Position numbers and translations under genes: made by a program. Below are positions 3,041-12,863 of a stretch of 32,000 nucleotides of DNA, piece after piece. The notes beneath the pieces were generated by a model. It had not been told where the DNA came from and did no database searches. It saw nothing but the letters and a program-made list of their open reading frames with translations. Source of the DNA: Methanocaldococcus jannaschii DSM 2661 (GTDB lineage: Archaea > AGJL01 > Methanococci > Methanococcales > Methanocaldococcaceae); contig NC_000909.1 of NCBI RefSeq assembly GCF_000091665.1, positions 1,404,118-1,436,117 on the forward strand, written 5' to 3'. Within the stretch, counting starts at the first letter, position 1, and each line of letters opens with the position of its first letter.

Positions 3041-3193
3041 TTTTATGGAAGGGAGAACTTATGCATTATCATGAACCTTTAATAAAGGTTCATCAAAATG
3101 AGTGGGGCTTCACTTCGTTCAGCTCCACTTTATTTATAGCTACAAAAGTAATGGAGTGATTTTTTATGGAAGGAAAAGCCTATGCATTAGCAT
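3041..3193. repeat. Palindromic repeat element (MJRE-like) flanked by a 32-bp imperfect direct duplication of the aroK SD/start region
   Basis: 3041-3072 vs 3162-3193 are 27/32 identical without gaps. Perfect hairpin ATGAACCTTT-AAT-AAAGGTTCAT at 3071-3093; hairpin AGTGGGGCT-(11 nt)-AGCTCCACT at 3101-3129. Confidence 0.8.
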
Positions 3194-4014
3194 CTGGGAC
3201 AATAATAAACGCTATAGCAACAGGTAAGGGTTCAGCTTTTGGATTAGATTTAAAGGTTTATGCCAAAGTTAAACTTATAGATGATGGAAAAAACAAAATA
3301 GAGGGTAAAGTTTTAGATAATCCAAACATTAAGCCAAATTTAATAGTAAGATGTGTCAAAAATACTTTAGATTATTTTGGGCTGAATTACTCTGCCTATG
3401 TTGAAACAAAGACAGAAATTCCTATAAAATCTGGATTGAGTAGTAGTTCAGCCACTTCTAACGCAGTTGTTTTGGCAACATTTGATGCATTAGGGGAAAA
3501 AATAGATGATGAGCTAATATTAAATTTAGGGATAAAATCAAGTTTTGATGAAAAATTAACTGTTACTGGAGCTTATGATGATGCTACTGCATCATACTAT
3601 GGGGGAATAACAATAACTGACAATATAGAAAGAAAAATTTTAAAAAGAGATAAGATGAGAGATGATTTAAACGTCTTAATATTAATTCCAAATTTAGAAA
3701 AGAATGTTGATGTAAATAGAATGAAGCTAATAAAGGATTATGTTGAAATTGCCTTTAATGAGGCTATAAATGGAAACTATTTCAAAGCTTTATTTTTAAA
3801 TGGAATTCTTTATGCATCAGCTTTAAACTTTCCAACAAACATAGCAATAGACGCATTAGATGCTGGGGCAATAACAGCCGGTTTATCTGGAACAGGTCCA
3901 AGTTATATAGCCATGGTTGAAGATGAAAATGTTGAAAAGGTAAAAGAAAAATTAAATAGGTATGGAAAGGTTATTTTAACTAAACCAAACAATGATGGAG
4001 CTTCTATTTACTAA
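3166..4014 (+). CDS. aroK: Archaeal GHMP-family shikimate kinase
   Basis: GHMP kinase phosphate-binding motif [11 protein letters not shown]. Length and sequence match the non-orthologous archaeal shikimate kinase first identified in M. jannaschii. Confidence 0.9.
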
Positions 4015-9209: not shown

Positions 9210-10190
9210 ATGGGAGTGCAGTTTGGTGATTTTATTCCAAAAAATATTATCTCCTTTGAAGATTTAAAAGGGAAAAAAGTAGCTATTGATGGAATGAATG
9301 CATTATATCAGTTTTTAACATCTATACGTTTGAGAGATGGTTCTCCATTGAGAAATAGAAAAGGAGAGATAACCTCAGCATATAACGGAGTTTTTTATAA
9401 AACCATACATTTGTTAGAGAATGATATAACTCCAATCTGGGTTTTTGATGGTGAGCCACCAAAGTTAAAGGAGAAAACAAGGAAAGTTAGGAGAGAGATG
9501 AAAGAGAAAGCTGAACTTAAGATGAAAGAGGCAATTAAAAAGGAGGATTTTGAAGAAGCTGCTAAGTATGCAAAGAGGGTTAGCTATCTAACTCCGAAAA
9601 TGGTTGAAAACTGCAAATATTTGTTAAGTTTGATGGGCATTCCGTATGTTGAAGCTCCCTCTGAGGGAGAGGCACAAGCAAGCTATATGGCAAAGAAGGG
9701 AGATGTTTGGGCAGTTGTAAGTCAAGATTATGATGCCTTGTTATATGGAGCTCCGAGAGTTGTTAGAAATTTAACAACTACAAAGGAGATGCCAGAACTT
9801 ATTGAATTAAATGAGGTTTTAGAGGATTTAAGAATTTCTTTGGATGATTTGATAGATATAGCCATATTTATGGGAACTGACTATAATCCAGGAGGAGTTA
9901 AAGGAATAGGATTTAAAAGGGCTTATGAATTGGTTAGAAGTGGTGTAGCTAAGGATGTTTTGAAAAAAGAGGTTGAATACTACGATGAGATTAAGAGGAT
10001 ATTTAAAGAGCCAAAGGTTACCGATAACTATTCATTAAGCCTAAAATTGCCAGATAAAGAGGGAATTATAAAATTCTTAGTTGATGAAAATGACTTTAAT
10101 TATGATAGGGTTAAAAAGCATGTTGATAAACTCTATAACTTAATTGCAAACAAAACTAAGCAAAAAACATTAGATGCATGGTTTAAATAA
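9210..10190 (+). CDS. fen: Flap endonuclease 1 (FEN-1)
   Basis: N and I nuclease domains (VAIDGMNALYQFL, PSEGEAQASYMA, SQDYDALLYGAP), H3TH region (GTDYNPGGVKGIG) and C-terminal PIP-like TLDAWF. Matches M. jannaschii FEN-1 as I remember it. Confidence 0.95.
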   Translation: MGVQFGDFIPKNIISFEDLKGKKVAIDGMNALYQFLTSIRLRDGSPLRNRKGEITSAYNGVFYKTIHLLENDITPIWVFDGEPPKLKEKTRKVRREMKEKAELKMKEAIKKEDFEEAAKYAKRVSYLTPKMVENCKYLLSLMGIPYVEAPSEGEAQASYMAKKGDVWAVVSQDYDALLYGAPRVVRNLTTTKEMPELIELNEVLEDLRISLDDLIDIAIFMGTDYNPGGVKGIGFKRAYELVRSGVAKDVLKKEVEYYDEIKRIFKEPKVTDNYSLSLKLPDKEGIIKFLVDENDFNYDRVKKHVDKLYNLIANKTKQKTLDAWFK

Positions 10191-10822: not shown

Positions 10823-11596
10823 ATGGAAAAACCAGTTATATGTAGAATAAAAGAAATAATAGAAGAAAGCCCAACAGTAAAAACATTTGTAGTAGATAAA
10901 GATTTTGATTTTAAGCCGGGACAGTTTGCAATGCTTTGGCTTCCGGGAGTTGATGAAAAACCATTTGGATTTTCTTCTAAAAATAGTTTTAGTGTTGCAA
11001 GAGTTGGAGAATTTACCAAAAAAATGCATGAACTAAAAGAAGGAGATATAATAGGAGTTAGAGGGCCTTATGGAACATATTTTGAGCCAATAGGAGATAA
11101 GGTTTTGGCAGTTGCTGGAGGTATTGGAGCTGCACCAATTATAACAGCAGTTGAAGAATTTTCAAAGCAGGGAATTGAAATAACAACCATATTAGGGGCG
11201 AGAACTAAAGAAGAGTTATTATTTTTGGATAGATTTGAAAAAGTTAGCAGATTAGAGATTTGCACAGATGATGGTAGTTTTGGATTTAAAGGTTTTACAA
11301 CTGAAAAAATGAAAGAAGTCCTTAAAGAAGAGAAATTTGATTTAATTATAACTTGTGGGCCAGAAATAATGATGAAAAAGGTTGTAGAAATAGCAAATGA
11401 ATATAATATTCCAGTTCAGGTTTCAATGGAGAGGTATATGAAGTGTGGTATAGGTATTTGTGGGCAGTGTTGTGTAGATGATGAGGGACTTTGTGTTTGT
11501 AAGGATGGGCCAGTATTTTGGGGAGATAAGTTGAAATTTATTAGAGAATTTGGGAAGTATAAGAGAGATGCAAGCGGTAAGAAGATTTATTATTAA
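10823..11596 (+). CDS. pyrK: PyrK-type FAD/NAD-binding, [2Fe-2S] electron-transfer subunit (dihydroorotate dehydrogenase B partner-like)
   Basis: Ferredoxin-reductase-type FAD/NAD module (AGGIGAAPI) plus C-terminal cluster CGIGICGQCC..C..C. Size (257 aa) fits PyrK. Confidence 0.7.
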   Translation: MEKPVICRIKEIIEESPTVKTFVVDKDFDFKPGQFAMLWLPGVDEKPFGFSSKNSFSVARVGEFTKKMHELKEGDIIGVRGPYGTYFEPIGDKVLAVAGGIGAAPIITAVEEFSKQGIEITTILGARTKEELLFLDRFEKVSRLEICTDDGSFGFKGFTTEKMKEVLKEEKFDLIITCGPEIMMKKVVEIANEYNIPVQVSMERYMKCGIGICGQCCVDDEGLCVCKDGPVFWGDKLKFIREFGKYKRDASGKKIYY

Positions 11597-11682
11597 CATT
11601 ATAAGGTATTGATATTTAGTTTTGATCAACCTTTTCTAAAAAGGTTGTTCGGGGAGTATATAGAGATGCGAGTGGAAAATTG
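11549..11682. repeat. Palindromic element flanked by a ~34-bp direct duplication of the pyrK 3' end (right copy frameshifted relic)
   Basis: 11549-11583 vs 11648-11681 align with one 1-nt indel. Both encode ..RDASGK... Hairpin CAACCTTTT-CTA-AAAAGGTTG at 11627-11647. Confidence 0.7.
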
Positions 11683-11717
11683 TTAAATTTTAAATAAAAT
11701 AGCTACAAGGGATTAAT

Positions 11718-12863
11718 ATGATAAAATTTGGAGAAGCAGTTTTGGGAAATGAAATTAAGGCAATAGTTAATGTTGCATTAGGGAAAGGAGAGTTAATTGA
11801 GAATACCTTTACAAATGCTTTAACAAGAGGAAATTGTGTTTTTGCCAATTTAAGACCTAATTTAATAGTTAAACCATTAACCTTAGTTGTTCCAAGGCAT
11901 AATATAGAGAGTGAGATACAGGATGAGCTATTTCAGGGAGTTATTCAGTATGCAGTTGCCAAGGCAGTTGCTGATTTAGATTTAGATGAAGATTTAAAGG
12001 TTGTTGTCTCTGTTAATGTCCCAGAGGTTCCAATAACCAATTTAAATAAAAGAAAACTCTTCCAATACTTCTATGCCTCAGCAAAGTTAGCTATAAACAG
12101 AGCTTTAAATGAATATCCTTCAAAAGAGAAGGTAAAGAAAGAGAAATATAGAGCTTTGCATCCATTAGTTGGATTTAGGGATGTTAGATTGGAGTATCCT
12201 CCATATCTACAAATTGCTTTGGATGTCCCAACTATGGAGAATTTGGAATTTTTGTTACAAACAATTCCAAATAGCGACCACATCATCTTAGAGGCTGGAA
12301 CACCACTAATTAAAAAGTTTGGTTTAGAGGTTATTGAAATAATGAGAGAATATTTTGATGGCTTTATTGTTGCTGATTTAAAAACCTTAGACACTGGAAG
12401 GGTTGAGGTAAGATTGGCATTTGAAGCAACAGCTAATGCAGTGGCAATAAGTGGAGTAGCACCAAAATCAACAATAATTAAAGCTATCCACGAATGTCAA
12501 AAATGTGGTTTAATCAGCTATTTGGATATGATGAACGTCTCTGAACCTCAAAAATTATATGATTCATTAAAATTAAAGCCAGATGTTGTTATCTTGCATA
12601 GAGGGATTGATGAGGAGACATTTGGAATTAAAAAGGAATGGAAATTTAAGGAAAACTGCTTATTAGCAATTGCTGGAGGAGTTGGTGTGGAGAATGTTGA
12701 AGAGCTTTTAAAAGAATATCAAATATTAATCGTTGGTAGAGCAATTACAAAATCAAAAGACCCAGGAAGAGTAATTAGGATGTTTATAAACAAGATGGGT
12801 TATGATATAGACACTTATAGGCTTTATTTTGATGAGGATGAGGATATAGGGGAGGAATTATGA
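11718..12863 (+). CDS. fae-hps: Bifunctional formaldehyde-activating enzyme / 3-hexulose-6-phosphate synthase (Fae-Hps)
   Basis: N-terminal Fae-like domain fused to an OMP-decarboxylase-fold HPS domain (LQIALD, ADLKTLDTG, IAGGVG). 381 aa as in the characterised M. jannaschii fusion. Confidence 0.9.
   Translation: MIKFGEAVLGNEIKAIVNVALGKGELIENTFTNALTRGNCVFANLRPNLIVKPLTLVVPRHNIESEIQDELFQGVIQYAVAKAVADLDLDEDLKVVVSVNVPEVPITNLNKRKLFQYFYASAKLAINRALNEYPSKEKVKKEKYRALHPLVGFRDVRLEYPPYLQIALDVPTMENLEFLLQTIPNSDHIILEAGTPLIKKFGLEVIEIMREYFDGFIVADLKTLDTGRVEVRLAFEATANAVAISGVAPKSTIIKAIHECQKCGLISYLDMMNVSEPQKLYDSLKLKPDVVILHRGIDEETFGIKKEWKFKENCLLAIAGGVGVENVEELLKEYQILIVGRAITKSKDPGRVIRMFINKMGYDIDTYRLYFDEDEDIGEEL

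Follow-up and report, generated by a model that had tools for sequence, protein, structure and literature searches.

REP and BIME sequences, which are mobilized by RAYT/TnpA-REP, are short extragenic palindromes of 20–35 nt with a conserved single-stranded head beside the stem; they are present in many copies, in either orientation and sometimes in tandem, beside highly expressed genes. MITEs, such as the Correia/NEMIS elements, the Sulfolobus MITEs and the PATEs, are small non-coding insertions flanked by direct repeats of their target; gene ends tolerate them, and they may provide signals for transcription. Integrative elements moved by tyrosine recombinases duplicate a gene end, leaving a joined copy that is functional and a displaced copy that decays, and they target the 3′ ends of tRNA or protein genes. 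The ends of IS200/IS605 elements and TnpB guide RNAs present a terminal hairpin that precisely abuts the flank, and retroposed small RNAs and SINEs have one precise and one variable end, with variable duplications of tens of nucleotides.

All of these features recur, in part, in a hairpin module at the junction of the pyrK and fae-hps genes of Methanocaldococcus jannaschii DSM 2661. The junction lies in a stretch of 32,000 nt, hereafter the window, for which an original prediction had proposed that an insertion separates a functional pyrK 3′ end from a decaying second copy. Here, we compare this site with its counterparts in related species and with other loci carrying the same module, which looks like an undescribed small insertion element.

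Results

Two copies of the pyrK 3′ end

The pyrK gene (MJ1446, 10823–11596, plus strand) is intact, and its product, a dihydroorotate dehydrogenase electron-transfer subunit with the Pfam domains DHODB_Fe-S_bind and NAD_binding_1, is identical to AAB99455.1/Q58841. The downstream gene fae-hps (MJ1447, 11718–12863, plus strand) was recognized by an exact Fae/Hps match and by Pfam, which also confirmed FEN-1 (encoded at 9210–10190), a metallophosphoesterase and an N6/N4 DNA methylase among the neighbors in the window. A 25-nt inverted repeat (9070–9094/9153–9177, 88% complementary, 58 nt apart) was seen just upstream of the FEN-1 gene.

All features of the junction are given on the plus strand. 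Copy X, the functional 3′-terminal 15 codons of pyrK (FGKYKRDASGKKIYY) with the stop, occupies 11549–11596. It is followed by a spacer (CATTATAAGGTATTGATATTTAG, 11597–11619) with homologues in M. vulcanius, M. fervens and a metagenomic P0001-type strain, then by TTTTGAT (11620–11626), the conserved flank of the module, and by hairpin 1 of the module, CAACCTTTT-CTA-AAAAGGTTG (11627–11647), which folds stably in the fold computation. Copy X′, a relic of the ancestral pyrK 3′ end (11648–11693), begins 0 nt past the hairpin and runs into the ancestral pyrK/fae-hps intergenic spacer (11694–11717), of which 24/24 nt are identical to M. bathoardescens (locus L144, 1477–1500). The unique stretch between the two copies (11597–11647) is 51 nt long and holds no ORF, and the whole insertion measures 99 nt relative to an empty site; the intervening segment had been put at ~64 bp. 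The module stands at one end of the insert only.

At up to three mismatches, the hairpin at 11627–11647 is single in the window, where none is expected by chance. An 11-mer made of its right arm and the next T (AAAAAGGTTGT, 11638–11648) also occurs within pyrK at 11375–11385, probably by chance. Contigs of several independent Logan assemblies from M. jannaschii-like samples (loci L004, L005, L008, L009 and L014–L016) stop at 11650 or begin at 11624, at the hairpin. The breaks at 11624–11650 may reflect another genomic copy sharing ~27–30 nt, or a palindrome that disrupts the assembly graph.

Local alignment of 11549–11580 with 11648–11678 gave a score of 27, a value that 24 of 2000 shuffles and 2 of 518 real chunks of 120 nt also attained; a gapless repeat search overlooked the duplication because of an indel. 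Seen from the window alone, the DNA likeness of the two copies is of modest, even marginal, significance, and it becomes decisive only with the other species.

Filled and empty sites in related species

Strain FS406-22 and M. bathoardescens have empty sites, in which a single pyrK end lies 23–24 nt before the fae-hps ATG and no hairpin whatever is found at the junction; in Methanotorris formicicus, 13 nt separate the pyrK stop from the fae-hps ATG. M. vulcanius and M. fervens, in contrast, share the insertion, in the order functional end, spacer, (T)TTGAT, hairpin and a second copy abutting the hairpin. The second copy of M. vulcanius is a still-open reading frame (FGKYKRDASGKRVVF and stop), and the hairpin of M. 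fervens, GAAACTTTT-TCT-AAAAGTTTC, differs from that of M. jannaschii by two compensated pairs. This distribution bears out that the pyrK 3′ end is present twice with an insertion in between, and the duplication, on the sequence comparison, is real. A metagenomic strain with a 95% identical PyrK has a KKIYY tail followed by the start of an M. vulcanius-like spacer; M. lauensis has a different, 83-nt spacer without a relic, and pyrK is not adjacent to fae-hps in M. infernus, M. indicus and M. villosus. The spacer of M. vulcanius (L017, 3430–3510) contains ~120 extra nt and a second, degenerate module (TTTAGTTTGGAATGCCATAAAAAGGTTG) directly before fae-hps.

Against the functional gene end and spacer of M. 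bathoardescens, the window sequence 11648–11717 aligned with 65 of 73 columns identical, and against those of FS406-22 with 61 of 72. As relic and spacer together match the single pyrK ends of empty sites, the downstream copy represents the original end of the gene, still where it was in the ancestor. Two 1-nt deletions have occurred in it, TATAAGAG to TATATAGAG (~11660) and one in the A-run 11676–11679, and its ancestral reading is GKIVKF with the stop TAA at 11691–11693; the ‘KLLNFK’ reading is therefore an out-of-frame version of GKIVKF. Orthologous to a functional gene end and bearing disabling mutations, the relic has the marks of a pseudogene fragment. The original prediction had thus correctly recognized an old terminus in decay and foreseen a relic-type tail in insert-free orthologues at the same locus, as found in FS406-22 (GKIVKF and stop) and M. 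bathoardescens (GKIIKF and stop). Its details need correction: a single 1-nt deletion had been counted, the LLNFK terminus with a stop at 11695–11697 is a frameshift artefact, and the string quoted for the second copy is 32 nt long (11648–11679), not 34.

Two simpler origins were dismissed on these data. Chance similarity in AT-rich intergenic DNA, to which the marginal within-window alignment alone would lend itself, is refuted by the orthology of the relic to functional ends at empty sites and by an architecture kept in three species, leaving it a negligible probability. A simple tandem duplication of a 99-nt unit was ruled out, as the sequences past the two stops are unlike.

The six close species are about equidistant (85–92% DNA identity) with mildly mosaic identity profiles, so that the pattern of filled and empty sites is compatible with one gain followed by losses or with lateral spread. 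A clear recombination tract around the relic is unsupported by profiles that are just mildly mosaic.

Origin of the PyrK tails

KKIY(Y/F) is a native pyrK tail: the gene of M. indicus, without the insert, ends in GKKIYF and stop, and that of another relative in GKKIKF and stop. KIYY is therefore not encoded by the insert and the protein does not read into it, which overturns the proposal that the functional copy continues into the insert and derives KIYY from there. Copy X of M. jannaschii is identical to the functional copy of M. vulcanius at 43 of 48 nt. Each copy holds a full five-residue tail and a stop at equal distance, and therefore the whole 16-codon end (48 nt including the stop) was duplicated rather than the ~11 codons first suggested, as the intact second copy of M. 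vulcanius also indicates.

Considered as a whole, then, the original interpretation held for the insertion, the relic, the tail prediction and the hairpin homologues (see below), and failed for the read-through, the origin of KIYY and LLNFK. In its full form it describes a ~64-bp element within the gene, from which KIYY is read, with ~11 codons duplicated. The likeness of the two M. jannaschii copies does fall off after GGT AAG / GGA AAA, as this form would have it; it is contradicted by the native tail of M. indicus, by the tail and stop at equal distance in both M. vulcanius copies and by M. fervens, whose relic has a KKVYY-type tail beside the ancestral spacer, and we consider it very improbable.

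This M. fervens relic tail is identical to the functional copy of M. vulcanius (12/12 nt), and the functional copy of M. fervens ends in RRVFF and is nearest in DNA to the M. vulcanius relic; that is, which copy of pyrK has which tail type is reversed from one species to the other. The swap points to later recombination between alleles, or to integration through homologous crossovers at differing points. It is best accounted for by the main rival to an insertion, in which recombination would have imported a foreign or looped-out allele (KKIYY tail, spacer and hairpin) into a KIVKF-type gene, either through one Campbell-type crossover with a small circle or through two joins, one of them homologous and the other illegitimate. 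In that case, the direct repeats would be homology arms and not a target duplication, and differing crossover points would fit the swap. Further in its favor, the two copies differ mostly where orthologues are polymorphic (5 of the 6 substitutions in the first 33 nt are at third-codon positions), KKIY(F/Y) is native in M. indicus and the identity profiles between species are mosaic. Yet a donor in which the module follows a lone pyrK end was not found, and a double-stranded circle of 99 bp would be physically awkward. Import accounts for a passage from one homologous locus to another, but leaves unexplained how the module arrived at targets as unlike as tRNA ends, ndk, a GHMP kinase and operons for ribosomal proteins, across many phyla and each time with the hairpin joined precisely. 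We see import as a possible but unlikely origin of the junction.

A widespread family of hairpin modules

Homologues of the hairpin elsewhere, as predicted, were found both in the window, as a variant at 3073–3099, and as numerous copies in other archaea. When one genome of each species was scanned with the pattern CAACCTTTTNNNAAAAGGTTG, at least 120 loci matched, a sample that is biased in that one exact stem was demanded. Among the matches listed, 79 loci are labeled archaeal and range over Methanocaldococcus, Methanobacteria, Methanocellales, Methanosarcinales/ANME, Methanophagales and Altiarchaeota, as well as the DPANN groups Woese-, Iain-, Micr-, Nano- and Aenigmarchaeota. The module reads TTTTGAT-CAACCTTTT-NNN-AAAAGGTTG; though the pattern did not require a flank, exact TTTTGAT was present on one side, as in the window, in 50 archaeal ones of the matches listed, and TTTTCGC, TTTTCGT or TTTTGGT in 21 further matches. 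The bacterial matches listed mostly lack the module flank. A separate repeat family in the Planctomycetaceae MAG Gx481_bin193, with at least 21 copies (L020, L025, L026, L041 and 17 other loci), has the same 21-mer palindrome nested between the palindrome CGTCGGCGATAGCCGACG and GGTGGG.

Among the matches listed, 70 of 77 archaeal copies lie outside ORFs of at least 90 aa. The archaeal copies occur in either orientation, none being preferred relative to neighboring genes, and a single genome may hold several (at least 12 in one Methanobacteriaceae MAG, two in this 32-kb window). On the strand reading hairpin-ATCAAAA, the hairpin loop is purine-rich and a second hairpin usually comes next, with a variable stem and a conserved, often UUCG-type loop (YTTCGYT..GCTCA). 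The pyrK insert appears to be a truncated member of a two-hairpin module family.

A covariance model (R1), built on the 32-nt module core, retrieved further copies with the stems AAAAC, GAAAC, CAAAC, CGGCC, CCACC, GCAAC, CAGCC, TGACC and TAAAC, so that at least 10 stem variants are known, all fully compensated. Five of nine pairs covary on both sides and 99.9% of cells are paired, which no shuffle matched, in an alignment that was fitted to the model and hence favors pairing.

No description of the family was found in Rfam or in the openly searchable literature. The window gave no gathering-level Rfam match, with chance-level matches only at the locus, and Rfam recognized only tRNAs in eight loci with full units. 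A C/D-box or H/ACA small RNA was rejected, no box motifs being seen at the locus by eye. Among 2.9 million viral contigs of IMG/VR, no exact copy of a 25-base module pattern was found, and a viral or proviral origin was rejected on this search.

In DPANN tRNA genes, the two-hairpin unit makes up most of 83–88 nt anticodon-loop introns (L058, 874–1030; L063, 1016–1166), and the module was also seen by eye, in either orientation, in tRNA-Trp and tRNA-Gly introns of Methanocellales (L035, L029). The introns of L058 and L063 are real tRNA introns. The direct repeats at pyrK cannot pair into a bulge-helix-bulge, and splicing of the insert out of the mRNA was set aside for this reason.

Ribosomal proteins, tRNA synthetases, RNA polymerase subunits and PCNA are encoded beside the copies, and no transposase or integrase family was enriched among 125 neighboring ORFs. 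A partner transposase was not found beside the copies, where the neighbors are housekeeping genes, with one IS110 in L019. This locus belongs to a Methanophagales MAG, and its IS110-family transposase gene (L019, 229–1002) is ~400 nt away from the module; IS110 elements target palindromic repeats, and this one may have inserted into the module rather than be its mobilizer. A large element between two inverted modules (L074, 493–3790) was likewise ruled out, the interior being an exosome operon.

A second insertion in the window

The second member of the family in the window, with both hairpins present, is inserted at the 5′ end of a GHMP-kinase gene (3166–4014), between 3041 and 3193. On the plus strand, a relic X′ with the ribosome-binding region, ATG and 9 codons of the next gene (3041–3072) abuts a variant of hairpin 1, GAACCTTTAATAAAGGTTC (3073–3091) with ATCAAAAT (3092–3099), the module being in the opposite orientation. 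Hairpin 2 follows (GAGTGGGGCT-TCACTTCGTTCAG-CTCCACTT, 3100–3130, fold z-score −6.4), with a loop common to copies in other Methanocaldococcus and in DPANN archaea, then a TATA-like stretch (3131–3161) and the functional copy X at the start of the gene (3162–3193). R1 matched 3071–3100 on the minus strand with 30.6 bits (E = 0.0017), and the 3073–3099 copy was absent from its training set. In the repeat search, 3041–3072 and 3162–3193 were 84% identical; the duplication measures 32–40 nt and the 89 nt between the copies (3073–3161) are without an ORF. The frame of the relic ends in a TGA created at the hairpin junction.

The 10-mer ATAGCTACAA precedes the starts of both the GHMP-kinase gene (3136–3145) and fae-hps (11699–11708), just after TATA-like stretches; the two genes may share it as part of a promoter or initiator, or it may be left over from an older insertion.

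Repeats flanking the module

The same geometry recurs at other loci: repeat, variable spacer, TTTTGAT, hairpin and a second repeat that begins right at the hairpin. When the 50 nt past the hairpin were aligned to the 250 nt upstream of the module, with within-locus controls, 19 of 76 archaeal copies (among the matches listed) outscored every control and 16 scored at least 27; at random positions of the same loci, 5.7% beat every control and 1.4% reached 27. About a quarter of the copies thus show a detectable duplication. In 11 of 12 inspected cases, the first base of the second repeat comes directly after the hairpin, while the first repeat ends 0–154 nt before TTTTGAT. The inspected repeats are 17–70 nt long, commonly 27–39 nt and ~190 nt in L145, and among their targets are a tRNA 3′ end (L093), a tRNA 5′ end (L145) and the beginning of ndk (L128). 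Wherever the gene could be recognized (five cases), TTTTGAT faces the functional copy and the hairpin adjoins the relic. The module might also be read as the scaffold of a guide RNA and the repeat as its guide, but this was set aside because the repeat is sense at 5′-end insertions and antisense at 3′-end ones.

Whole units also form tandem arrays (L103, 98-nt units; L145, 209-nt units; L036, L040, L074 and L138). In the metagenomic contig L145 (2600–3030), each 209-nt unit ends with an exact M. jannaschii-type module, has an older variant module inside and duplicates the promoter and first ~17 nt of a tRNA gene.

Such arrays would be expected if the hairpin were a resident intergenic signal (a terminator, processing site or protein-binding site) and the repeats arose by palindrome-provoked slippage or tandem duplication. 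The position of copies at operon borders, by highly expressed housekeeping genes and tRNAs, and the T-runs beside and within the hairpin point the same way. However, the absence of the hairpin from empty-site species indicates that it came together with the duplication, and a tandem block including the hairpin predicts a second hairpin past the second repeat, absent at pyrK. As for a terminator, an intrinsic-terminator scan of 11300–11900 returned no site, and the T-run comes before, not after, the hairpin. Slippage at a resident signal strikes us as improbable.

Discussion

What the comparison shows directly is that sites are filled or empty, that the relic is orthologous to functional gene ends, that the hairpin belongs to a widespread family under structural constraint and that many other loci repeat the pyrK geometry. 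From this, we consider it probable that the module is a non-autonomous insertion element of small size whose insertion duplicates long stretches of the target. A small non-coding insertion would have occurred at the pyrK/fae-hps junction in the ancestor of M. jannaschii, M. vulcanius and M. fervens. The insert, a 23-nt spacer with TTTTGAT and the 21-nt hairpin, would have been mobilized in trans, as elsewhere with target duplications of variable length (17–190 nt), and would have brought a direct duplication of 48 nt or more from the end of pyrK. Still joined to the gene, the upstream copy would keep PyrK intact, and the downstream copy, still joined to the old spacer before fae-hps but untranslated, would be left to decay.

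The relic may persist because, with the old spacer, it carries the fae-hps promoter region, and the T-runs of the insert may end the pyrK transcript. The idea of a terminator with a retained promoter comes from the T-runs (11616–11635) and from the TATA-like stretches TATATAG (11657–11663) and TTTAAATA (11689–11696), and the two roles are put forward as an inference only.

Several results weigh against an insertion element, namely the lack of an enriched transposase or integrase among the 125 ORFs and of viral copies, the detectable duplication in only about a quarter of the copies, and the M. fervens/M. vulcanius tail swap, which a single target duplication does not predict; moreover, we know of no transposase that makes duplications so long and variable. 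There is a small chance, slightly below that given to allele import, that the module is instead an undescribed pan-archaeal selfish or structural nucleic-acid element spreading without a dedicated transposase. One possibility would be that a small hairpin-headed nucleic acid is captured during lagging-strand synthesis: its 5′ hairpin would resist flap removal, and the upstream fragment would displace the annealed part and be ligated to the hairpin. The hairpin would then be joined precisely and the far end would vary, and duplications could be as long as an Okazaki fragment. Such an element would also colonize tRNA introns and might supply transcription boundaries near core genes.

The pyrK site is a clean natural example of a tolerated insertion where a gene end overlaps the upstream region of the next gene; by duplication of the overlap both functions are kept, and one copy then decays. 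The hairpin family, whose sequence hardly changes between hyperthermophilic methanogens, DPANN and Altiarchaeota, is constrained to a hairpin, lies beside core genes and in tRNA introns, and is often bracketed by long target repeats. A mobile family would point to a mechanism of insertion that known archaeal transposons do not cover; a host signal of this kind would be unrecognized and widely conserved. Either way, it bears on the annotation of gene ends, on assembly breaks and on the reading of short ‘pseudogene’ fragments in archaeal genomes.

Compared with the known systems, the module has the palindrome and head of REP sequences in TTTTGAT and its 9-bp stem. REPs, however, are species- or genus-specific and without long flanking target duplications, whereas the module is nearly identical across archaeal phyla, and no RAYT was among the top families of the 125 neighboring ORFs. 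Like MITEs, it is dispersed, multi-copy and non-coding, but no parent IS is known for it, most copies have a single defined end, copies inverted at both ends were seen in L082 only, and its repeats of 17–190 nt are variable where those of MITEs are fixed at 2–10 bp.

As with integrative elements, att-like direct repeats rebuild a gene end, at pyrK and at the tRNA 3′ end of L093. Neither window insertion (51 and 89 nt, no ORF) has a recombinase or cargo between the repeats, the ‘element’ is 28–170 bp long without an integrase and, unlike in integrative elements, the repeat is new at every locus while the adjoining module is constant. TTGAT, the target and TAM of ISDra2, stands beside the hairpin. 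IS200/IS605 elements and PATEs make no target duplication and use a fixed tetra- or pentanucleotide, whereas the module has a duplication and a variable flank (TTTTCGC, TTTTGGT), and TnpA/TnpB were not enriched among the 125 ORFs near its copies.

Unlike retroposed RNAs, the element has no A-tail, and we know of no reverse transcriptase in M. jannaschii. The common duplication length resembles that of a CRISPR repeat and recalls Cas1-Cas2 ‘neo-CRISPR’ integration, but the insert is a specific conserved sequence and not a random spacer, and many DPANN hosts, to our knowledge, probably lack CRISPR. With one precise end, one variable end and long variable repeats, the anatomy is unlike that of MITE, REP/RAYT, IS200/IS605 and integrase-borne elements, and the module works most like a small non-autonomous insertion element.
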